From Mobula hypostoma (lineage: Eukaryota), in NCBI RefSeq assembly GCF_963921235.1, contig NC_086107.1:107758001-107822000 (forward strand): DNA of 64,000 nt, read 5' to 3'. The notes beneath the pieces were generated by a model. That model did not search any database, was not told the DNA's origin, and was given only the letters and a program-made list of their open reading frames with translations. Within the stretch, counting starts at the first letter, position 1. Every line of letters begins with the position of its first letter. Position numbers and translations under genes: made by a program. Positions 10,392-60,559 of this stretch are shown here, in pieces.

Positions 10392-10986
10392 GTCCGCCAG
10401 AGAAAGCAGCATCTCCCAGTGGCCACACATTTTAATTCCACGTCCCATTCCCATTCTGACATGTCTATCCACGGCCTCCTCTACTGTAAAGATGAAGCCA
10501 CACTCAGGTTGGAGAAACAACACTTCATATTCCATCTGGGTAGCCTCCAACCTGATAGCATGAACATTGACTTCTCAAACTTCCGCTAATGCCCCACCTC
10601 CCCCTCGTAACCCATCCGTTATTTATTTATATACACACATTCTTTTTCTCTCTCTCTCCTTTTTCTCCCTCTGTCCCTCTGACTATACCCCTTGCCCATC
10701 CTCTGGGCTTCCCCCCTCCCCCTTTTCCTTCTCCCTGGGTCTCCTGTCCCATGATCCTCTCATATCCCTTTTGCCAATCACCTGTCCAGCTCTTGGCTCC
10801 ATCCCTCCCCCTCCTGTCTTCTCCTATCATTTTGGATCTCCCCCTCCCCCTCCCACTTTCAAATCTCTTACTAGCTCTTCCTTCAGTTAGTCCTGACGAA
10901 GGGTCTCGGCCTAAAATGTCGACTGTACCTCTTCCTAGAGATGCTGCCTGGCCTGCTGCATTCACCAGCAACTTTTATGTGTGTTG
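10392..10986 (+). mobile_element. Penelope-like element 3' end (GIY-YIG C-terminus, pLTR, decayed hammerhead)
   Basis: Peptide PVATHFNSTSHSHSDMSIHGLLYCKDEATLRLE..LGSLQP..MNIDF. Motif CTGACGA..AAAATGTC at 10893-10920. TSD CTTTGATAT at 10383-10391 and 10987-10995. Confidence 0.8.
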
Positions 10987-11679
10987 CTTTGATATCAAAG
11001 TTACTGTGAACTTTAAACTTTTGAAGTATTTTTCCCACACCAATCTTGTGGCCCTTTGCTGGCTCCTACTGAAGCAATATTTACTTAGTTAAGCCCATCA
11101 GCCGTACTGGGACATAGGCTGCCAATAGCAGCTTGCCCATCTTGTCTACCCCAGGTGTAGCCCATCCTCTCCTTCCTTTCCCAGGGATGAGGTCCCTGGG
11201 GCTTTTGTTGGCATCTCCGTAGCACTGTGCTTTTACGGGATGGAGTTGCTAGCCCCATGCAGGATCCTCCTTTCACAGCCGGGCTTGGGGCTATCCATGG
11301 TGGAGTTCATTTAAGCAATCCTTCAATTCTAAGGTTTACATCCTTGCTTTCGAATTGTTCCTACCTCCATGACCTCTCCCGGCACCGAAGCACTCAATGA
11401 ACCTTCAATTTTCATGACCTACACATCTCCAGATTTAGTCCGCCCTCCCCTCTGGTGGGCGTGCCTTTGGCTGTCACAACTCAAGCTCTGGAACTCCCTC
11501 CCTAAAACTCTCCAACTCTAGCTCTCCATCCTCCATCGATACAGTCCTTTACACTTTCCTCTCTTACCAATCATCTGCTCCTCAGCCGCAGTCTTCTGTT
11601 GCATCTTGGCAAATTTTCTTTGATAGAGTTCTTGGGAAATACTTTGGACAATTAGAGACAGGATTTACGATGGGATATT

Positions 11680-12680
11680 CACAAATGATTTGGATGAAGA
11701 AGTGGGAGGATGGGCTCGTAGGTTTGCAGATTACTTGAAGGTTGGTGGTGCTGTGGAAAGTGTAGAAGGTTGTCGTAGCTTATAGTGGGATATTGACAGG
11801 ATGCAGAGCTGGGCTGAGAAATTCAATCCAGAAAATTGTGAAGCTGTACACTTTGAAAGGTCATACTTGAAGGCAGAGTACAGGGTTAAAGGAAGGATTA
11901 TTAACAATGTGGAGGAACTGATGGATCCATTGTGTCCCTGAAGGTTACTGCACAAGTTGATAGGGTTGTTAAGATGGCGTTATGGTGTGTTAGCCTTCGG
12001 TAGTTGGGTATTGATTTCAAAACCACGAAGTAATGTCACATTTCCGTAAAACTCTGGTTAGACCACACTTGGAATATTGTGTTCAGTCAGCTGTGGAAGT
12101 TTTAGAAGGGGTGTAGAAGAGATTTACCAGAACACTGCCAGGATAAGAAAGCATTTCTTATGAGGATAGGTTGAGCAAACTTGGGCTTTTCTCTTAGGAG
12201 CAAAGGTGGGTGAGAAGTGACTTGTTGAGGGTGTACAAGATGATAAGAAGCATAGATGGCATGGATAGCCAGAGACTTTTACCCAGGGCAGAAATGGCTA
12301 ATACGTGGGTCTTATTTTAAGGTAACACACAGAAGATGCTGAAGGAATTCAGCAGGTCAGGCAGTTTCCGTGGAAACGAACAAATGAGCCGAGACCCTTC
12401 TTCAGGACTTTTCGCTCATCTATGCACCTAATTTTAAGGTGATTGGAGGAAAGTCTAGGGGGAATGTCAGAGCTAGGTTTTATTAGGTAGCGACTGGTAA
12501 GTGCGTGGAACGAGCTGCTGGGGTAGTGGTAAAGGCAGATACGTCAGGGGCATTTAAAAAACTCTTAGATAGGTGCACAGATGAGAGAACAATGGAGGGT
12601 TATGTGGGTGGGAAGGGTTAGATTGTTCCTGGAGTAGGTTAAAGGGTTAGCACAGCGTTGTGAGGTGAAGGTTCCAATCT
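11680..12680 (+). mobile_element. Decayed CR1 LINE RT/3' region
   Basis: Recognisable CR1 stretches (AGACCACACTTGGAATATTGTGTTCAG and others). Contains a short pLTR fragment at about 12325-12410. Confidence 0.7.
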
Positions 12681-12699: not shown

Positions 12700-13250
12700 A
12701 GTGAGGCCTCTGTCAGTTAAGGTCAACCATGGATGTTGTGTCCTAGCTGTCTAGATATGCAAGCCTGAGCAGTACAATATGGAGACCATGCAGCAAGTCC
12801 TCTCTCTCCAGGCATCTGATAAACCTAAAGGAATGCAGAGACCGATACAGTTTGGTACCAGCAGCGTCGCAGGAGTTGCTAGTCAGTGTTGAACTCAAAG
12901 TAGAACCTGCTTCAGGGACCCCAGCTCCAGATTTTTCCCTTGGGGTTTACTCCAGAAGACTTCCCCATGAGTGGGTATAACCGCAAGGCAACGGAGGTGT
13001 CCTTCTCCTCGGTGAGCTGCCGACCTCGGCTGACGAGCCCCATCTGCCCAAAGCGACTGGCTTTATGGCACCAGTAACCCACCCTTGCCCTTTCTCCTGT
13101 CAGTAGAAACGGTTCGGCCGGGATTAGTAGCTAAGCCACACGTGAAGGCCAGGAGTTGGACTTGGTTGTCAGAGGCTATTTGAGACGCACGTGACTGGGA
13201 GCATTTAATAGGTAGAGGGAGCTTATCCCCACCACCACCCCCGGCGATAG
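12700..13250 (-). mobile_element. Interspersed repeat, probably RTE-derived and non-autonomous
   Basis: Shares blocks with about 38435-38850 (GGGTTTACTCC..CCCATGAGTGGGTAT..GACGAGCCCCATCT). Confidence 0.5.
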
Positions 13251-13289
13251 CAACCTTAAGGAAGCATAACGATGATATAAATGCAAATA

Positions 13290-13515
13290 ACAGGAATTCT
13301 GCAGATGCTGGAAATTCAAGCAACACACATCAAAGTTGCTGGTGAACACAGCAGGCCAGGCAGCATCTCTAGGAAGAGGAACAGTCGACGTTTCAGGCCG
13401 AGACCCTTCGTCAGGACTAACTGAAGGAAGAGTGAGCCTGAAACGTCGACTGTACCTCTTTCTAGAGATGCTGCCTGGCCTGCTGCGTTCACCAGCAACT
13501 TTGATGTGTGTTGCC
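13290..13515. mobile_element. Penelope-like pLTR fold-back insertion
   Basis: Inverted arms at about 13320-13397 and 13436-13514. Perfect 12-bp TSD TAAATGCAAATA at 13278-13289 and 13516-13527. Confidence 0.85.
13382..13419 (-). ncRNA. Minimal type I hammerhead ribozyme motif, intact core
   Basis: Minus strand reads UAGUC CUGACGA AGG-GUCUCGG-CCU GAAA CGUC^GACUG: stem I AGUC/GACU, conserved core, stem II, palindromic ACGU stem III and a GUC cleavage triplet. Confidence 0.75.
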
Positions 13516-13820
13516 TAAATGCAAATAGTTGTTGTTGACGAACGGTTCTTGCAGAAATGGGGTCATCGGATCATTAATGTATTTTCCTGGACTTACTAAT
13601 TTATTTTAGGAGCCCTCCTTAATTTTCCTTCTGTCGAGATAATGGATAGAATGCTGCCCAAGGGATCAGAGTAGTCGCTGACACACCAGAAGTTAATAGG
13701 TGCAAACTTTCATATTCTGCCACCAGCAGATAAACATAACGTACTTTTAATATAAATTTCAACAGAAAGTAAACGTTCAGTGATTGTAGGCATTTTTAGA
13801 GACAAAACCACGGGCGTATA

Positions 13821-14396
13821 TGTAACACTGTGGTTCCGTTGGCTGTGTAAGTCAAGAGAAGGCACCCTCCAGCTCCACCAAATGGGGGAGATTGAAGTGC
13901 ACGCCCCCCAAATCCCCCTGTTTGTGTGGCTGCTGCGTGATTTGTTACCCTGTCACAAATATGTACCGCAGAATAACAGACAGTACACTGCATACAATTA
14001 AAAGATTTAGCTTTATAATTCTTAATTTGACTAAAGGGTTAGTAAAGAAAAAGCCAAAACAGGAAAGGGCCCATTTTAAATGAAACAGTTTAATGTGCAC
14101 AAGTTGGAGCTCACAGTTTCCCCTTCGCTGATCCTCCCTCGATCTCCCCGGGCTTCATCGAATCCTGGCTCCATTCCGGGTCGTCTCCTCCGACCTCTTC
14201 TCCCCTCTCAAAAGCCCCAAGCCCAACCTTAGTGTCCCTTAACAGAGGAACCTCCCTGAATCCGTTCATCCCAATCGGATGGCACACATTTCTCCCCTGT
14301 CTTATCTTCAACAGTAACCCAAACAAGCAGCTTACACAGAGATCAGAAAAGCATAACAGAGAAAAAAATATGAACCATGTGAACCAGGGCATCAGA
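13821..14396 (-). mobile_element. Possible solo LTR
   Basis: Begins TGTAACA and ends GGGCATCAGA (near-TG..CA ends). No TSD found. Confidence 0.35.
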
Positions 14397-19850: not shown

Positions 19851-20293
19851 GAGGAAGCCGGCCAGGAATGGATTGCTGAGGCGATGTCGTGTTTGGAGCT
19901 TAAAAAGTTTCTCATCAATCGCCACAGAGCACGGAAGGAGGCCATTCGGCCCGATATGTATGTGCTAGCCTTTGAGAGTAGCTTTACAATTATGACACCA
20001 CTTACTTCTTTTCCCCAGATCTATGGAAGCATGTTCCCTTTCCAAATAGACGTTAAATTCTCTTTTTAAGTTCCCTTTTGAATCGGCTCTCATCACCCTT
20101 TAGGTGGCCACACGCTACAACACAACAGCCCCTGTGAAAGGTATGATTTTGGTTGAAGAACTACGTTCATGTAGATGGTAAGATATTAAATGGAGGGGAT
20201 GAGAAATGAAGATAATCTATGTACATTACATGGAGGATAGAATTTTCAATTGAATGTCTGGTCCATTCCAGAGACAGAACCTGAATAGCAGGA

Positions 20294-22216: not shown

Positions 22217-22350
22217 GTTGAACAGCACACGGCGAGTTGGGAAGCTTCTCACTTGGGTCTCCCAATATCAGCAGTGTTTCCATTTACACGATGATAATAG
22301 CAAGAGAGTGATATGCTCCAGGTTATACTCAGACTGTATATGATGCAACT

Positions 22351-23583
22351 ATGAAAATGGACAAGGGAGAGCCAGTGGATGTAGTGTACCTGGACTTTCA
22401 GAAAGCCTTTGATGAAGTCCCACATAGGAGATTGGTGGGCAAAATTAGGGCACACGGTATTGGGGGCAGAGTACTGATATGGATTGAAAATTGGCTGGCT
22501 GACAGAAAACAAAGAGTAGTGATTAACGGGTCCCTTTCGGAATGGCAGGCGGTGACCAGTGGCGTACCACAGGGTTCAGTGCTGGGACCGCAGCTGTTTA
22601 CAATATATGTTAATGATTTAGATGAGGGAATTAAAAGTAACATCAGCAAATTTGCCAATGACACAAAGCTGGGAGGCAGTGTGAAATGTGAGGAGGATGT
22701 TATGAGAATGCAGGGTGACTTGGACAGGCTGGGAGAGTGGGCAGATGCATGGCAGATGCAGTTTAATGTGGATAAATGTGAGGTTATCCACTTTGGTGGT
22801 AAGAACGGGAAAGCAGATTATTATCTAAATGGAGTCAAGTTAGGAAAAGGGGAAGCACAACGAGAGCTAGGTGTTCTTGTACATCAGTCACTGGAAGCAA
22901 GCATGCAAGTACAGCAGGCAGTGAAGAAAGCTAATGGCATGCTGGCCTTCATAACAAGGGGAATTGAGTATAAGAGCAAAGAGGTCCTTCTGCAGCTGTA
23001 CAGGGCCCTGGTGAGACCACACCTGGAGTACTGTGTGCAGTTTTGGTCTCCAAATTTGAGGAAGGACATTCTTGCTATCGAGGGAGTGCAGCGTAGGTTC
23101 ACAAGGTTAATTCCTGGGATGGCGGGACTGTCATATGTCGAAAGATTGGAGCAACTGGGCTTGTATACTCTGGAATTTAGAAGGCTGAGAGGGGATCTGA
23201 TTGAAACATATAAGATTATTAAGGGATTGGACACGCTGCAGGCAGGAAGCTTGTTCCCGCTGATTGGTGAGTCCAGAACCAGAGGCCACAGTTTAAGAAT
23301 TAGGAGTAGGCCATTTACAACGGAGTTGAGGAAAAACTTTTTCACCCAGGGAGTGGTGGATGTATGGAATGCTCTGCCCCAGAAGGCTGTGGAGGCCAAG
23401 TCTCTGGATGCTTTCAAGAAAGAGATGGATAGAGCTCTTAAAGATAGCGGAATTAAAGGTTATGGGGATAAGGCGGGAACTGGATACTGATAGTGGATGA
23501 TCAGCCATGATCACAGTGAATGGCGGTGCTGGCTCGAAGGGCCGAATGGCCTACTCCTGCACCTATTGTCTATTGTCTATTGA
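22351..23583 (+). mobile_element. 5'-truncated CR1 LINE with an open 379-aa RT/C-terminal frame
   Basis: YLDFQKAFD, GVPQGSVLGP, SKFANDTKL (FADD motif altered to FAND), RPHLEYCVQFWSP. 3' UTR and (TATTGTC)n tail. Confidence 0.93.
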
Positions 23584-32255: not shown

Positions 32256-32685
32256 TATGTATATGTCACCATATACTACCTTGACATTCATTTTCTTCCA
32301 GGAAAATAAAGAAACATAATAGAGTTTATGAAAAAATATTACATATAACAAAGACTGAAAAACATGCAATGTGCTAATGAGGATGAATTATGCCAATAAT
32401 AAATGAAAAATGTAAGAAATAATACCGAGAATATGAGTTGCCTTCCTCTTGCTGTGGCAGGAGCGATTCCTCTCTCTCCCTTGTTAAGTGAGAGTGAGAA
32501 TGAGAGTGAGTGAGAGTGAGAGAGAGTGAGAGTGCGAGAGAGGGAAAGAGAGAGAGAGAGCGAGACAGACAGACAGACACTGTGGCATGTCGAACTGATG
32601 GGTGAGCAGGTTTTTTTGATGGCCTCTAGATTATGGTCTCTGGGGACTTTGCTATTCCTTGCATGGTGGGTGATGGAGGAGGCTC

Positions 32686-32874
32686 AAACACGAGGAAATC
32701 TGCAGATGCTGGAATTTCAGGCAACACACACAAAAAATGCTGGTGAACGCAGCAGGTCAGGCAGCATCTATAGGAAGAGATACAGTCAAAGGGTCCCGGC
32801 CTGAAATGTCGACTGTATCTCTTCCTATAGATGCTGCCTGGCCTGCTGCTTTCACCAGCATTTTTTGTGTGTGT
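32686..32874. mobile_element. Penelope-like pLTR fold-back
   Basis: Inverted arms meeting at about 32787. TGATGGAGGAG on both sides (32671-32681 and 32875-32885). Confidence 0.75.
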
Positions 32875-35252
32875 TGATGGAGGAGTCTGTTGCTTTTTGC
32901 TGAGATAGGTGGGGGAAGGGGTGGAGGGTTGATGCTTTCACTGCTGCTTGTGCGTGAGAGGGGGCAAGGGGGGAGTTTGGGGTTCTAACTTTTTTTCCTG
33001 TCATTCATTCTTTGGGGTTTTTCTTCTGTTTTGTGGATGTCTGTGGAGAGTAAGAATTTCAGGTTGTATACTGCACACATTCTCTGATATTGTAGAGTCC
33101 TTGAAAGTGAGTCCATAGGGTGTGGAGTCAGTTCAGCATTGAGGTTAGTGAAATTATCCACACTGATTCAGGAGCCTGATGGTTAAAGGATAATAACTGT
33201 TCTTTAACCTGGTGGTGTGGGACATAAGGATATAACACACTTTTCATCTCTCTTCCCTCCGGATGAAGGCTCAGGAGCTTGAAGACTCATACGGCCAGAT
33301 TTGGGAACAGCTTCTTTCCAACTGTGATAAGACTGCTGAACGGATCCTGACCCAGATCAGGGCCGTACCCTCCAAATATCTGGACCTGCCTCTCGGTTTT
33401 TTTGCACTACCTTACTTTGCATTGTTCTATTTTCTATTTATGATTTATAATTTAAATTTTTAATATTTACTATCGATTTGTAATCCAGGGAGCGGGAAGG
33501 GCAGAATCAAATATCGCTGTGATGATTGTACGCTCTATTATCAATTGTTTGGCGACAATAAAGTATGAAGTATAAAGTATATATATATCCCTACGAGGAG
33601 GTGTGAGTGTGTATGTGAGATTCCATATTTATGTGTACACAGATGTGTTTGTGTGTGAGTCAAGAGAAAGTGTGAATGTGTAAATACACTTGATTGCATG
33701 AGGTGTGTGTACTGTGACAGTATGAGTTATCAGCGTGAGCCTGTATGAAGAGGTAAGTACTTGTGTCTCAGCCTGTATGAGATAAAGGCAAGAGATTCTG
33801 CAGATGCTGGAAATCCAGAGTGAAACACACAAAATGCTGGAGGAGCTCAGTAGGGCAGGCCACATCTATGGCGAGGATTGAAGAGCCAGCGTTTCGGGAT
33901 GAGACCCTTCATCTGAGTTTGTGAGACAACGTACAAGGTGGTGCGAGTGTGTGAGAGGCCATATCAGGAAGCATAAATACATGTTTGGGAGACTGTAGAT
34001 GGAGGTATGTGTGTGTGTGTGTGTGTGTGTGTGTCATTGTGTATTTATGTGAGGCTGTGTGAGAGAGTGCATGTCTGTGTGTGGTGCCCCAACCGAAAAC
34101 CTGAGACAGAGATTTCCACTGACTACCTTGCATGGCACTAATTCCTTGGCTACCTGCCATAAAATATATTTTTCCAAGGAAGTTTTTGCCTGCTGCCGGG
34201 CTGATTCGAGGGCTCCCCACCTCTTCTAGTCTCAATCCCCTGCTGCCCTCCACCCCTTTGCGGACTCCCTCTCGGCCCCGGCGCTGTCTACGTGTGCGCC
34301 TATGAAAAATAAACGCTACAACTTCATTAAAATAACAGACACCATCCAAGGGAGTAACAGGCCTACAATTCTATCTGGGTGATGTTATAGACCGCAATGG
34401 CAGCTTAGGAAAGAGCGTCCAAGTCCTTGGTCTAAACACCAGCCAGCACCCTCCCTCCCAGGTATTTACATTACAGAACAGAGCTTCACTGTGTGGTGTC
34501 AGCTCAGGGAAAGGTTGAGAAATCACACAACCTCCGCCCAATCAAGACCACTCCTGGGCTATGTTGGACTATGTCTGTTTCAGTAACCTGGCTGGATGGG
34601 TCAGATCTGAATTGTCTGCATCTGCATTTACCCCCTCAAACCTCTTCATACCCCTCTAGGTCCTTGGAATCTGACTTGTCAGAATGGTTTTTTTAGAGTT
34701 GTGGGTCCAGAGGATTGGTTTTGATCTATACCACAGGGCGATCTAGTATCGAAGACTTCGAGGTGGAGTGAGTGTGTGACAGATAAGAGTGACACATGAA
34801 CAACCAAACACAGAAATTGGAGGTGCAATCTAGCAGAGACAGGAGCACGAATAGCTGTAGCATTAGAGTCACAGAAATCGGGACAATTAACCTTAAAGAG
34901 CAGGTAATGATGGGAATTCATCAGGATCCAGCAGGAGTCTGGGCTCAGTGGAATAAACCTTGGCAATGCTTCCCAGGTGGCACCTATTAAGGATTGTCAA
35001 ATTATGTTAGGCAGGTAACAAACACAAGTATAGCCTATTGGACCAATGCCTACTGATAGGCCATCAATTTTGCTGCTTCAGTTAGAACTCAGGTATCTTG
35101 CACTCAATTGTAACACCGCTCGACTGAACTTGGCTCTGGACTGCAGTGACAGTCACTAACCTCGACAGGAGTCAGCTCATCTTGCAAGAATCTGGTACCA
35201 GTTGGAGATTTAGGTTGAAATTGCACGTGATATAGCAATGTCCATGTGATAA

Positions 35253-37600: not shown

Positions 37601-39517
37601 ATTCTATAGAACAACACGAGTTCTCTCATCTATGTAATAAGGTATTTATACCTGTTTATCACCAGACAATGGAAAGCATTCCATTACTTTTACCTCAATT
37701 TGCTGAGCATAGAGTCTCACAGCACAGAATGCAGACATTTCGTCCACTGTATCTATGCCAACACTTTAATAGTGTTACCACACACTTCCAACCCCTCTGT
37801 TCTTTCTGTGCAACTCTTCTAATTTCCCATTCAAGTACTTATCCAATCCTTTTCGAAAGTTCCTGTTAAATCTACTTCTACCTCCCCTGTTAAGGCAGCA
37901 AGTTCCAGATTTCAGCAACTCACTGGGACAAAAAAGAAATCTTTTCATCTCTCCCACCCCATCAGTATCTTTGCCAGATGCCTTCAAATACTCCATATTT
38001 TGTTTGTTTGGAGTCTTCACTGTGCATCCTGCCGGCCTTATTCCCAAAGGAATATGCAAATATGTGTTTCCCTGCCGCTCCTGTAGACTCCTTCTCTTGC
38101 TGGACTGGATTTAAGTGCTCAGGAGCATGTTTTTTTTTTAAACTGGTGAAGATAATTTAAATTTGAGTTGCCAAGCTGGCATTTTATCTAAGCTTTTTTT
38201 GCAGAAAGGCGGCCTTGCATTTCTAAAACACCTGAAAATTGAAAGACTGCAGATGGAGAAAATCTGAACTAAAAAAAACAAAATGGTGGAAACACTCAAC
38301 AAATTTTACCTGAAGTTCTACCTCTGTTTCTCTCTCCAAAGATCTGCTGTGCATTTCCAGTAGTTTTCATTTTCATTTTTAAAGCATCTGCTCTGTTTCA
38401 GTCAAAGCAATTTACAAATTCATCTTGAGGTCTCCATTGGTAAGGGTCGCCCATGGATATTGCATCTCAGCTCTCTATGTGACAGGCAAACCAGGGAAGT
38501 ATGACATGTAGAGCAAGTTTTGGGTTCATAGCAGACTCCCCCCTCTCCATGCAGCTGATGAATCCAAAGGAACAGCAGACACCGATGCAGTTTGGCACCA
38601 TCAGTGTCACAGGAGTTGCCAGTCAGTGTTGAACTCAACACAAAACTGCCTTAGGACTCCACCATCGAATTTTTCTTCAGGGTTTACTCCCAAAGCCTTC
38701 CCCATGAGTGGGTATAGCCACAAGGCAGTGGAGGTTTGAGATCAGAATTTTCCTTCTTCTAAATGAGCTACCAACTGTTGCTGACGAGCCCCATCTACCC
38801 GAAAGGTTCTGAGGCACCGGTGACCTGCCTTTGTGCCTTCTCCTGTCAGACTCTACTTTAAAAACCGTTTCAATAGCTTTAAAGTGCTTGAGAACATCCT
38901 GAGGTTCCAAAAGAGCCAACAAAATATAATTTGAAAAAGGTATTTATACCATCTTTTGATTATCCTATTTTGCATTGGTTACATTGAGAAATAATATGGG
39001 ATTAAAATGATTTCAAAACACAATTTGGCTCCAAAAGATGAAGGTGAAAAGTAAAGAAATTTATTGCTAATTATAAACATTGAGTCAAAAATATAGTCTT
39101 GATCAACATTGATTTCCCTCCCATCTTAGACCTGTTTCAGACTGCTGCAGACTAAATAAACGCGAGGCTTTGGGAAGGGGTAGGAGAAACCAATGGAACA
39201 TTGTACTAGAGGAAGGAATTTACGTGCAACACTTATAAATCAGTGGTCAGGGCTTAGCTAGAGCGTTGCCACAATTCTGGGCCCCATGTGTTTTCTTTTC
39301 CTCAGATGGATGTAAAAGGCCTTGGAAATTTACAGAACAGTCCCAAGGCATTTAGCCCTGCCGTGACTGGAGAAGCTGGGGCTGTCATCCAGAGCTGATA
39401 TCAGAGCTGTTCAAAATTACAAAGGGTTCTCATAAGAGTAAATGGGGAGAGATTGACTCCAGCCATGGAAGGGTTGTTAGCCAGACAGCAAAGTTTTAGA
39501 GTGATGGAAATGATAAT

Positions 39518-47388: not shown

Positions 47389-48095
47389 TTATGGGCGGGT
47401 GAGCGTCGTGTAGACGGGCTGCTCCCAATGGGTGGGACTGCGGGACTGGGGCACCGACTGCGGGTCACTGATGGAGGTGTAGAGCGGGCGCTGCGAGGCG
47501 CCCATGTAAGAGAAGGCGGTGTAGAGTCCGGAGGTCTGGGCGGACGGGCTGTAGTAAGGCCCGGTGGCCTGGTGCTCGGGGTAGTCGAACTGGGACCTGG
47601 TGATGCTGGGGAAGGCTGTGCCGTAGTGCGGGAGGCTGAGGGAGGTGTAAGTGATCTGCGCCGAGGAGTGCTGCTGCTCCGAGTAGTGGCTCGGGTGCGA
47701 CTGCTCAGTCTTGATCTGGGTCTTGGACTCGGCCGAGGCGGCGGCCGGGCCCGACGGGGCTGAGCCGCTGGCGTGTTGCTTGGAGATCCAGGCGGAATGT
47801 CCACCGGCCAGTGCCCCTCCGAGCCCGTAGTTTCCACCGTAGGCCCCGGCGCCCAGGGCTTGCCCGTGGCTGGGATGCCCGTTGGGCGGCAGGTACTGGT
47901 CAAATTCATGGACATCGAAGGTCTCCATGTTGGACATAACGTCGTGACTGAGGTCCCCGATGTCCATGTTGCTGAAATCGATGTGCGGCTTCCCTCCTTC
48001 TACCAGCGGGCGTCCTTCCCGTTTCCCCTCCGCTTTTCCGGGCTGCATCTCTGTCTTTGGGGTGGTGGGGGGAGTTGGGGGGCCATGGCTCTGCC
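47389..48095 (-). CDS. SOX10: SOX10 last coding exon (K2 and C-terminal transactivation domains)
   Basis: Acceptor ttctAG at 48097-48096, with phase compatible with the previous exon. Peptide [16 protein letters not shown]...GGKPHIDF...GHSAWISK...[10 protein letters not shown]...SQRPLYT...[16 protein letters not shown] has SOX10-type motifs rather than SOX9/SOX8 ones. TAA at 47391-47389. Confidence 0.95.
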
Positions 48096-48949
48096 CTAGA
48101 AGCAAATGAACAAAAAAAACCTTCAGACCCTCTCACAGGAGAAACATTGGCACAAAATACGGGCAAAACGAAGTACAGATGGAGGGGTTTGAACTAAAAA
48201 AAAATTGGCAATTCCTTTCCAACCCCCACAGATGCTGTTTGAGCTGCACTCCTTTAGCAGACTGTTTGCTGGTGGATACATATGACTGGAGTCTGGACAG
48301 ACATACAAGAACACAGTGGGTCAGGCACAATATATTATGAGAAATGGACAGTCGATGTTTTGGGTTCAGAACCTTCAAATGTCAGGATGAAGGATCTCTG
48401 CCCAAAACATCAACTGTCCATTTTCCTCTATAGATGCTACCAGATCCACTGAGCTCCTTCACCATCTTGTGTGTTGAACAGGGAAAACCAAGGTGGATGT
48501 TGAGGAAGAGTGGAAAAAATCATACTACATCTGTGCAAAGCTCTCATTGCACAAGAAGTCTGTCCTTATGAAGAACTGGAGGGAGGATACTTGGATCCCA
48601 GATGTTAAATTGTAAAGAGAAGTTAGAAATCTTGAATTGTATTATCTGGAATTTGGAAGGTTAATGAATGGTTTGATCGAACTCCTGCAGATATTACAGG
48701 ATACCGATGAAGATTATAGAATCTGACAATTGGAGTTAGAACATACAGAAGTAAAAAAAGTAATAAACAATTTTAATCAAAATGAATTTGGACCTCTTCC
48801 ATGAAGGATATTTATTTATTTATTGAGATACAGCATGGAATAGGCCCTTCTAGAATGTGCCACCCAGCAATCCCAGATCCTAGCAGACAATTTACAACGT
48901 CCAATTAACCTACCAACCAGTACATCTGTGGACAACAACCATCAAATTA

Positions 48950-50082: not shown

Positions 50083-51067
50083 TCTCATTCAGGAATAACA
50101 AAACAGTTTAAAACATGTAGTTTAGATTCACTAAGGATGGCAAGGTTCAGTTATTGGGGCCTCAACTATTTGGGTTATATTTCAGTTCCGAGGAAGGGTA
50201 CTATGTGATAACGGTTCTCATCTTGTCAAAATCTTTTCATAAGTTAGAAAGTAGAGCCAGGAACATGCAGTACCCTCCACTCACTTGGTTCTGCGCAGCT
50301 CCAAAAACACTGAAGAAGCTTAGTGCCATTCAAGACAATTCAGTCTTCATTTTTATCCCACCTACCTCCCTAATCATTCGTACCTTCCACCATGATGTAA
50401 TGTGGGCTACCCACAAAACGAACTGCAGCTATTCTGGTAGATACTCCAACAACACCTCCCAAAACACTGACCTGTACTGCCAAGAACAGCAAAGGCACCG
50501 TCAGTTGCAGGTCTCCCTCTGAGTTACACCCCATCTCTCAATGTTATTCTCAGTATCTCATGTTTTCAGTATTATTTATTATTATTATTTCTAGCTGCAT
50601 AGCTTGCTTTTTTGCACATTGGTTATTTATCAGTCTTTGTGTAGTTTTTCATTGATTCCATTGTATTTGTCTGTTCTACTGTGAATGCCTGCAAGAAAAT
50701 GAATCTCAAGATAGTATATGGTGATATATACATACTTTGGTAATAAATTTACTTTGAACTTTGATCCTGAATTGGAACATCATTATTACTGGGTCTAAAT
50801 CCTGGTAACCCCCTACCTAGCTGCACTCTGAACTGGAGCAGCACAAGGCTCACCAATACTTTTCAAGGGGCAATTAGAAATGGGTAACAAATGATGACCT
50901 AGCTAGCGATACCTATATTCCATAAGTAAATAAAAAATTGCCATCGAGTTGGATTCAAACTATAAAAATATGTAAACACAAGAGATTCCTCGGATGCTGG
51001 AAAATCAAAGCAACACACAAAATGCTGGAGGAACTCAGCAGGCCAAGCAACATCTATGAAGTAGCAA

Positions 51068-51599
51068 CTTTGCTTCCCATTCCCGTTCTGACATGTCAGC
51101 CGATGGATTCCTCTAGTGCCATGATGAGGTGACACTAAGCAACACCTTATCTTCTGTCTGGGTAGCCTCCAACCTGATGAAATGAACATCAGTTTCTCAA
51201 ACGTCTGATGAAGGAGACTCCCTACCCTAATCATTCCCTATTTTTTGCTTTCTTGTCTCACATTATCTCCTTACCTGCCGATCAACTCTCTCCAGTGCTC
51301 CTCCCATTCCCTTTCTTCCATGGGCTTCTATCCTCTGCTATCAGATTTCCCCTTCTCCAGCCCTTTACCTCTCTCACCGATGAACTTCCCAGCTCTTTAC
51401 TTCACCCCCTCCCCCTCTCCTGGTTTCACCTATTGCCTGCCACCTTGAACTTCTTCCTCCCCTCCTCCTACCTACTTACTCTGACTTCTCAACTTTCTCT
51501 CCAGTCCTGATGAAGGGTCTCAGCCCAAAACAGAGGCTGTTTACTCTTTTCCAGAGAGGCTGCCTGATCTGCTGAGTTCCTTTAGCATTTTGTGTGTTG
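51068..51599 (+). mobile_element. Penelope-like 3' fragment
   Basis: GIY-YIG-tail-like DNA (CAACACCTTATCTTCTGTCTGGGTAGCCTCCAACC) and CTGATGAAGGGTCTC. 15-bp TSD TCTATGAAGTAGCAA at 51053-51067 and 51600-51614. Confidence 0.75.
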
Positions 51600-51881
51600 T
51601 CTATGAAGTAGCAAATAGATTTTAAGATCTGACTGCAAAGTAACGAGAGGAAACTCGATGAAAATAAAAAAAGGGTGACAGAGATTAATTAATGTTCTAA
51701 TGTAAAGTGCTATTGGCAAGTGAACTTTATCCACATACTTGAAGTGTCTGCAGCAGAGCTTATCACATTTAAAGAGGGAATTTGTTGAAAGTGATTGGGT
51801 ACAGGATAAAGTAGAAAATGGAGATTCAGAAACAACACCATGAGCTGAATGCTCTACTTGTATGATTGACTAAATTGTAAA

Positions 51882-52668: not shown

Positions 52669-52925
52669 CTGTGTGCTCACCATGACCCTCTGCAAGTGGA
52701 GAGCTCCCAGTTGTGCGCCCACGATCCTGAGGCACAGCCTTGTAGTGGGGCTGGACAGAGGAGATGTGGCCATCCTCCGGGTGTGCATCGGCATCACCTT
52801 GACCAGGCTTCATGTTCTTCCGTCGGCGGGGCTGGTACTTGTAGTCCGGGTGGTCCTTCTTGTGCTGGGATCGCAGTCTCTCAGCCTCTTCCACAAAGGG
52901 CCTCTTGTCATTCTCATTTAGTAAC
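52669..52925 (-). CDS. SOX10: SOX10 second coding exon (C-terminal part of HMG box and linker)
   Basis: Translates (R)[37 protein letters not shown]...EGHGEHT(G). Acceptor ccgcAG at 52927-52926 (phase 2) and donor GT at 52668-52667 (phase 1). Length 257 nt = 1+255+1, which matches the SoxE exon structure. Confidence 0.96.
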
Positions 52926-53155
52926 CTGCGGTGAATAGGGAAGAAAAGTAGTTCTGTAATTCTTCAATTTGAGTTCATGCAACTGAAGAAAAATGAATTT
53001 ATTATTTATTAATTTATACATTTTGGAGAATGCCACTCAACCCATTGTGTACTAGCAACATGATAGGGTTGTCCTATTTCTCCTATTTGTTCCTGTTCTT
53101 TTCCTTTAGCATTGAGAGTGTCTCCTCCAAGAACTTATCAATGCTTAAATCATAG

Positions 53156-60147: not shown

Positions 60148-60559
60148 AACACACATCAAAGTTGCTGGTAAGTTGTCAGATAACACACATCAAAGTTGCT
60201 GGTGAACGCAGCAGGCCAGGCAGCATCTCTAGGAAGAGGTACAGTTGACGTTTCGGGCCGAGACCCTTCGTCAGGACTAACTGAAAGAGGAGCTAGTAAG
60301 AGATTTGAAAGTGGGAGGGGGAGGGGGAGATCCTAAATGATAGGAGTAGACAGAAGGGGGAGGAATGGAGCCAAGAGCTGGACAGTCGATTGGCAAAAGG
60401 GATATGAGAGGATCATGGGACAGGAGGCCTAGGGAGAAAGAAAAGGGGGGGGGGAACCCAGAGGGACAGAGGGAGAAAAAGGAGAGAGAGAAAAAGAATG
60501 TGTGTATATAAATAATGGATGGGGTATGAGGGGGAGGTGGGGCATAGCAGAAGTTTGAA
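60148..60559 (-). mobile_element. Penelope-like pLTR/3' fragment in SOX10 intron with near-intact hammerhead (60242-60279)
   Basis: Reverse complement of the 10580-10986 region. TTGTCAGAT at 60139-60147, 60173-60181 and 60560-60568. Confidence 0.8.

Follow-up and report, generated by a model that had tools for sequence, protein, structure and literature searches.

EN+ Penelope-like elements (PLEs) of the Penelope/Poseidon and Neptune types are described, in the available parts of PMC8557442 and PMC3846280, as leaving complex insertions: a 5′-truncated copy – with a hammerhead in its pLTR – adjacent to an inverted, 5′-truncated pLTR, with a tail of 30-40 bp on one side only and a TSD of about 8-12 bp. 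A CX2-5CxxC linker marks Neptune and is also present in Nematis (PMC8557442, in part). The minimal hammerheads of PLE pLTRs number thousands per genome in several vertebrates, and in metazoan PLEs they are type I motifs with no helix III, a palindrome at 15.1-16.1, 4-5 bp in helix I, a single base left unpaired between positions 9 and 10.1, and G10.1; the unpaired base after A9 and the G10.1-C11.1 pair are named as conserved (PMC4209133, in part). The same portions of that source give the helix II of the Schistosoma families as 7-8 bp, report no cleavage of a Schistosoma minimal hammerhead as a monomer and weak cleavage as a dimer or trimer, and map the intron end of D. virilis Penelope to helix I.

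The Poseidon element PAc of Anolis carolinensis has had its activity measured, and the available parts of its description (PMC11167929) show a protein that cuts and extends both strands and prefers AT-rich DNA, with reverse transcription starting at two internal sites that bound the tail. The PAc motif cleaved only with protein, no RNA ends were seen at the cut site, and insertion in vitro did not need ribozyme cleavage. Non-LTR retrozymes, as far as the available text goes (bioRxiv 10.64898/2026.07.22.740005), are non-coding, pLTR-related and arranged as tandem units, each with a type I hammerhead.

Here, we analyze an insertion of 226 bp at positions 13290-13515 of a 64-kb stretch of ray DNA (the window, to which all coordinates refer; Table 1). 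We read it as a dead-on-arrival insertion of a Neptune-type PLE whose hammerhead is inactive in place, with a probability of about 0.88. Its layout of inverted pLTR plus tail is already published (PMC8557442, PMC3846280, both in part), and as a single copy it is an ordinary fossil. It shares 5′ truncation, the adjacent inverted pLTR, the pLTR hammerhead, the one-sided tail and the TSD length with canonical EN+ complex insertions, but is extremely short, has no ORF between its arms and resides in a ray. Its hammerhead has the metazoan PLE features listed above, including the missing helix III, the palindrome, the short helix I, the unpaired base and G10.1, but its helix II is 3-4 bp long, unlike that of the Schistosoma families, and it differs from the motifs in the available part of PMC4209133 in having U11.1 for the conserved C, as do three other loci, and in having its 3′ half duplicated in antisense alongside. 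Like PAc, the family has a tail bounded by two ends, an AT-rich target and a hammerhead upstream of the region where reverse transcription starts; unlike PAc, which belongs to the Poseidon clade and lacks such a linker, it carries a zinc-finger-like linker. Like the retrozymes it is pLTR-related and non-coding with a type I hammerhead, but it holds a single motif and an inverted half copy in place of tandem units.

The copy offers a natural, core-intact template for work in vitro from a Neptune-type clade and a ray host, and is usable as such because it is the only core-intact copy in the window; in the literature consulted we found no assay of a Neptune-type or ray hammerhead. The many copies of this kind could be used to ask how PLEs generate inverted pLTRs, and whether the hammerhead has any part in insertion.

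Table 1. Features of the insertion and of its sister copy (window coordinates; minus-strand features of the hammerhead are given in reading direction).
Feature	Position	Strand	Basis or remark
TSD, left copy	13278-13289	.	12 bp, AT-rich; identical to 13516-13527
PLE tail, 30 nt	13290-13319	-	3′ end of direct pLTR; missing in inverted arm
Direct pLTR, 5′-truncated, sense strand of element	13320-13432	-	95% identical to longer copies at their 3′ ends
Minimal type I hammerhead	13419-13382	-	descriptor match and family alignment
Stem I	13419-13415 with 13386-13382	-	5 bp including terminal U·G
Core CUGACGA, C3 to A9	13414-13408	-	sequence read directly
Extra unpaired A	13407	-	A in 13 of 13 aligned rows with a letter
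Stem II	13406-13403 with 13398-13395	-	G10.1·U11.1 in this copy
GAAA, G12-A15.1	13394-13391	-	sequence read directly
ACGU palindrome	13391-13388	-	U16.1 = 13388
GUC triplet, C17 = 13387	predicted cut between 13387 and 13386	-	
Pyrimidine tract ending CAG, just before helix I	13421-13432	-	candidate 3′ splice site / intron end
Junction, 3 nt	13433-13435	.	fits neither continuation; joins direct and inverted parts
Inverted partial pLTR, 79 nt	13436-13514	+	begins in stem II, stops at pLTR end, tail-less
Single extra base	13515	+	beyond inverted arm, before right TSD
TSD, right copy	13516-13527	.	organism C contig aligns from exactly 13516
Sister copy, not part of the 13290 insertion	10392-10986	+	endonuclease end, 3′ UTR, same pLTR, decayed hammerhead

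An earlier note on this DNA, made from the letters alone, had described a 226-bp inverted-arm unit with a perfect 12-bp TSD. The TSD is as described: its two copies agree at 12 of 12 positions and bound the insert exactly, and an exact 12-mer is expected by chance at about 1e-5 with junction slack allowed. Along the minus strand the order is TSD, 13515, inverted arm (13514-13436), 13435-13433, direct pLTR (13432-13320), tail (13319-13290) and TSD. The arms are likewise real, 13320-13398 and 13436-13514 being complementary at 76 of 79 positions with three mismatches, but the unit is asymmetric, with the 30-nt tail outside them. When the mismatches are compared with other young copies, 13380 and 13348 are changed in the direct arm and 13461 in the inverted arm; the other letter at 13380 makes up 86-97% of family contig depth. 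Since the inverted arm begins inside stem II, it contains only the 3′ half of the ribozyme. The longer copies matched by the direct pLTR in BLAST within the window do so at their 3′ ends (10875-10989 and 60182-60292), and family contigs part from the insert sequence behind 13432. The tail is common to this copy, to those at 20290, 32693 and 61075, and to older copies.

BLAST recovers 15 loci of the family in the 64 kb. The insert itself has no ORF, and its link to a reverse transcriptase (RT) and a GIY-YIG endonuclease (EN) runs through the sister copy, in which the endonuclease C-terminus occupies 10392-10589 (stop at 10587-10589) and the hammerhead pLTR lies 3′ of the ORF on the ORF sense strand (C3 at 10893, plus strand); this copy has no tail and an 11-bp TSD candidate. 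Its endonuclease end is 88% identical to residues 305-387 of P0001 by tblastn, and the fragment retrieves seven homologues from nine candidates, all named from rays, with identities of 91% for Mobula hypostoma (the best) and 71-82% for Hypanus sabinus. The homologues carry a YIDD-type RT motif together with GIY-YIG; Pfam GIY-YIG matches five of the seven at E 5e-4 to 2e-3 (18.7-20.9 bits, under the 22.6 cut-off), and NCBIfam gave no matches. A CX3-4CxxC linker is present in six of the seven, the Neptune criterion being CX2-5CxxC between RT and EN. Judged from these sequences, the parent is an EN+ PLE, probably of Neptune type by its linker motif, and very abundant in rays. The Penelope-like origin and the minimal type I hammerhead proposed in the earlier note are thus borne out by the core, the pLTR layout, the endonuclease-linked sister copy and the ray homologues. 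We found no description of the pLTR of this ray family in the literature consulted, although supplementary lists and subscription papers may hold elasmobranch motifs. A search of metagenomes with a 20-mer of the pLTR returned 32 loci, and all 32 were chance matches with no similarity to the family past the motif.

The hammerhead itself was read correctly by the earlier note as to core nucleotides, ACGU palindrome and stem I. Its core fits the CUGANGA, GAAA and NUH pattern of minimal type I PLE hammerheads. A minimal-hammerhead descriptor matches the window once, at this site, against 1 of 300 dinucleotide-shuffled windows with a match; by the same search this copy is the only one with an intact core among the 15 loci, as expected for a young copy. 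A model search had been proposed as a check; the Rfam covariance models return no match at gathering score in the 64-kb window. Weak Rfam matches (8 and 1) include no hammerhead family, and those to microRNAs only mirror the hairpin. Rfam hammerhead models expect helix III, and their miss therefore says little about a motif without it. A second hammerhead on the plus strand was considered but not upheld, as its core is disrupted and the descriptor has no match on that strand.

The stem II register of the earlier note, AGG/CCU, has to be replaced. We aligned 15 segments from 12 of the 15 loci (alignment A1; the loci at 12388, 40625 and 50985 were left out), and among the rows with letters on both sides the first A-U pair of that register forms in 4 of 13, versus 13 of 13 for G10.1-Y11.1 (G-C in nine, G·U in four). 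The family therefore has an unpaired A after A9 followed by a G10.1-C11.1 pair, which the family majority retains and the 13290 copy, with G·U, does not. The derived U11.1 occurs in both arms of this copy and at the loci at 10875, 20290 and 32693, and is absent from all seven old rows, which makes a template variant at a CpG its probable source. Position 13395, that of U11.1, is not among the 40 listed of 253 differences in the family contigs. The change is predicted to weaken stem II, whose energy goes from -5.1 to about -2.5 kcal/mol. Taken alone, the two registers are predicted to be close in the 13290 copy (-2.5 and -2.2 kcal/mol), and constrained folds favor the G·U register by 1.2-1.4 kcal/mol.

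For the origin of the fold-back we favor, at somewhat better than even odds, double priming from both nicks. The element protein would nick the two strands of the AT-rich site 12 nt apart; one nick would prime reverse transcription at the distal start site, at the tail end, to give a 143-nt cDNA, and the other would prime at the proximal start site, at the pLTR end, to give a cDNA of about 80 nt. Joined head to head, the two would yield TSD, tail, pLTR, junction, inverted pLTR and TSD. By analogy with PAc, exactly the structure of the insert would result if one nick primed at the tail end, the other primed at the pLTR end, and the products were joined in this way. Manual reading of the window finds four fold-backs; in all four the tail is on the direct arm and missing from the inverted one, and the junction is different each time.

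The same PLE could instead have acquired the inverted arm by self-priming, by template switching of one cDNA or from an antisense template, which we consider possible but distinctly less probable. Self-priming has been proposed for head-to-head PLE repeats (PMC3846280, in part), and the derived U11.1 shared by both arms is what a copy of a copy would show. However, the arm is no continuation of a hairpin, as 37 nt lie unpaired between the arms and it starts inside stem II; it stops in four of four fold-backs at the pLTR end, where all three long copies end; and there is no palindrome at the junction.

A MITE is a unit of constant make-up with a terminal inverted repeat at each end. It is very unlikely that the 226-bp fold-back is itself the mobile unit, as a non-autonomous family of MITE, SINE or retrozyme type, even though it is discrete and TSD-bounded, fold-back copies occur four times in the window, and pLTR-derived retrozymes are reported from vertebrates including one chondrichthyan (bioRxiv 10.64898/2026.07.22.740005, in part): the four fold-backs have four different junctions and arm lengths, 1,254 different joints are recorded across the stretch, there is no tandem array, and, with the tail positioned beyond the arm, the unit does not end in terminal inverted repeats.

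Two features of individual fold-backs were noted alongside. The TSD at 13278-13289 resembles the family's tail continuation, as read from a loose-end consensus at 0.5 agreement, with 9 of 12 letters alike, two G·T-compatible and one mismatched (binomial P ~0.002); no such resemblance was seen at 20290, 32693 or 61075. In the fold-back at 32671-32888 only 1-2 nt at most separate the start of the direct arm from the hammerhead cut site; this is one instance, which may or may not reflect a cleaved template.

The suggestion that the 13290 copy is possibly still cleavable finds no support in its genomic context, where the inverted arm precedes the ribozyme, a second intact motif is missing and stem II carries G10.1·U11.1. 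Cleavage in place is unlikely because transcription reaches the inverted arm before the ribozyme, whose 3′ half the arm is predicted to bind, and because there is no tandem partner; neither a second intact hammerhead nor a tandem copy was found in the 64-kb window or near the locus. The minus-strand unit is predicted to fold as one long hairpin of -174.8 kcal/mol (z -25). Within the whole unit, stems I and II have a predicted probability of 0 and opening the hammerhead would cost 40.6-41.9 kcal/mol, as compared with 4.8-6.0 kcal/mol for the hammerhead alone. The arm duplex is predicted to take over once its partner emerges, leaving the ribozyme sequestered at every transcript length scored, and without the arm the upstream pyrimidine tract would still keep stem I at a probability of about 0.01-0.1. 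Only RNAs starting at 13426-13419 are predicted to escape the arm (stem I probability 0.43-0.83).

These predictions and the analogies with described hammerheads all point against activity in place, which we regard as unlikely; the motif, once excised, may cleave when placed in an engineered dimer or when the element protein is present. The hammerhead would be inherited pLTR cargo, needing a second copy (with an ACGU:ACGU helix III) or help from protein, and, masked by the inverted arm, it would decay neutrally with no local function. That the copy is instead a live, locally used ribozyme, in a transcript running on downstream of a presumed SoxE-type gene or begun at an internal pLTR promoter, is very unlikely, since against its intact core (the only such copy in the window), its strand shared with the exons at 52670-52930 and 47389-48132, and the stems I and II predicted for RNAs beginning at 13419-13426, the gene's last coding exon is about 34 kb away, read-through RNA would meet the inverted arm first and is predicted never to form the ribozyme at scorable lengths, the best predicted monomer fold pairs core GACG with CGUC, the designed dimer is predicted at -12 to -13 versus -31.5 kcal/mol for the free co-fold, and the minimal hammerheads of metazoans show no activity as monomers and little as dimers (PMC4209133, in part). 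We also considered, and rejected, the upstream pyrimidine tract as a conserved anti-ribozyme switch: it blocks folding in the 13290 copy and at 10875 but not at 60182, and 102 of 300 shuffled tracts are predicted to block folding too.

The earlier note had looked to family-wide conservation of the core relative to its flanks, and here the comparison between subfamilies leans toward conservation, whereas that among copies does not. Among copies of the young group, non-CpG differences number 3 of 55 in the core and 6 of 276 in the flank; the core is thus no better kept, as expected for neutral fossils. Between the young and old majorities, the hammerhead differs at 3 of 36 sites, all outside the invariant core, and the flank at 11 of 48 (P=0.14). 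Contigs of other subfamilies stop matching at 13380 and 13418, the edges of the motif, by the hundreds per run in four of four runs, the break-off at 13418 also including 5′ truncations. Together, the subfamily comparison and the contig breaks point to, without proving, conservation in the master elements. Stem covariation in the 15 rows of alignment A1 was not above that in shuffles.

The same note had called the insertion recent, which holds only in a relative sense. The copy departs from the young-group majority at 2 of 91 sites, which places it with the least diverged of the window, but its arms differ at 3 of 79 positions, a divergence of 3.8% with a 95% interval of 0.8-11%, and its end appears to be shared with organism B. 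A contig of organism A matches 13491-13932 with no differences. That of organism B can be aligned over its full length, to 13495-13933; it shows 13 differences in 439 letters (~3%) and includes 21 letters of the insertion end, an overlap below the 31-letter bar set for a bridge; an empty site would mismatch 17 of these 21 letters, and the insertion is therefore probably present in organism B. For organism C, the alignment does not begin until 13516, where the TSD starts; of the 335 letters of this contig the first 89 do not fit, and 246 align with 17 differences, which suggests an empty site. For organism D, no contig covers the single-copy flank. The insertion thus probably dates to between the split from C (~7% divergence) and that of A and B (~3%), young for the window but not current. 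At the 13331 marker the alternative letter, A, accounts for 29% and 37% of the depth in organisms A and B and for 94% in C and D, indicating that the subfamily of the 13290 copy expanded in the A/B lineage. No empty-site joint of organism A is among the 15 listed of the 1,254 joints.

Ends were mapped for 14 copies (9690, 10392, 12388, 13290, 20290, 29212, 32693, 33790, 50985, 51066-51600, 54905, 55392, 60182 and 61075), with 40625 left out. Because automatic local alignments over-extended the ends at 20290, 54905, 55392 and 60182, end classes were read by hand with the aid of TSD candidates. None of the three long copies, which all end at the pLTR end, has a tail, compared with nine of the ten classifiable short copies (Fisher P=0.014, post hoc and hand-read, with the ambiguous 54905 counted as tail-less and 12388 unclassifiable). 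Of the 11 short copies, eight have their start between -4 and +2 relative to C3, and the 13290 copy starts at -18. Since these eight starts lie upstream of the cut site, the templates would have been uncleaved. Small as the numbers are, they fit an origin of the short copies from the 5′ pLTR of a transcript, and the distribution of tails and 5′ ends among the copies is consistent with reverse transcription primed by both nicked strands, from two start sites within the RNA. The pyrimidine tract and its CAG are present in the 13290 copy, at 10392, 60182 and 51490, in the inverted arm of 29108, and in the older subfamily.

These patterns admit a joint reading, which we offer tentatively and at well below even odds, in which ray genomes would amount to a very large natural archive of intermediates in Penelope integration. 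Each short tail-bearing copy would be a complete cDNA of the element RNA's 5′ pLTR. The 5′ end of that RNA – a start site or a splice junction – would lie at the edge of helix I and not at the cut site, and the long tail-less copies would come from the 3′ pLTR. Fold-backs would arise by dual-nick priming, sometimes aided by pairing of target and tail RNA (at 13290, nine Watson-Crick and two G·T pairs in 12 nt). The templates would be uncleaved, and as the subfamily with the weakened G10.1·U11.1 still spread, cleavage would be dispensable for insertion in vivo, or opposed to it.

Several other features of the window were recorded. Within 50978-51615, the long copy at 51066-51600 (plus strand), which has the endonuclease end, adjoins an older pLTR fragment on the opposite strand, and a 14-bp direct repeat on either side makes this probably a nested insertion; at 60150-60182, after the 60182 copy, the pLTR end and TSD are duplicated in tandem over a short distance. 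Another high-copy repeat occupies 12700-13265, ending about 12 bp left of the TSD, with a second copy at 38426-38849; it has no Rfam ribozyme match, and we take it to resemble the 5′ region of an RTE-type LINE. The minus-strand segments 52670-52930 and 47389-48132 are exons of an HMG-box gene, the C-terminal sequence of which we take to resemble the SoxE group, probably sox10. On the plus strand, an open frame of 392 amino acids at 22312-23490 contains RVT_1 (E 5.5e-20) and presumably belongs to a CR1-like LINE.
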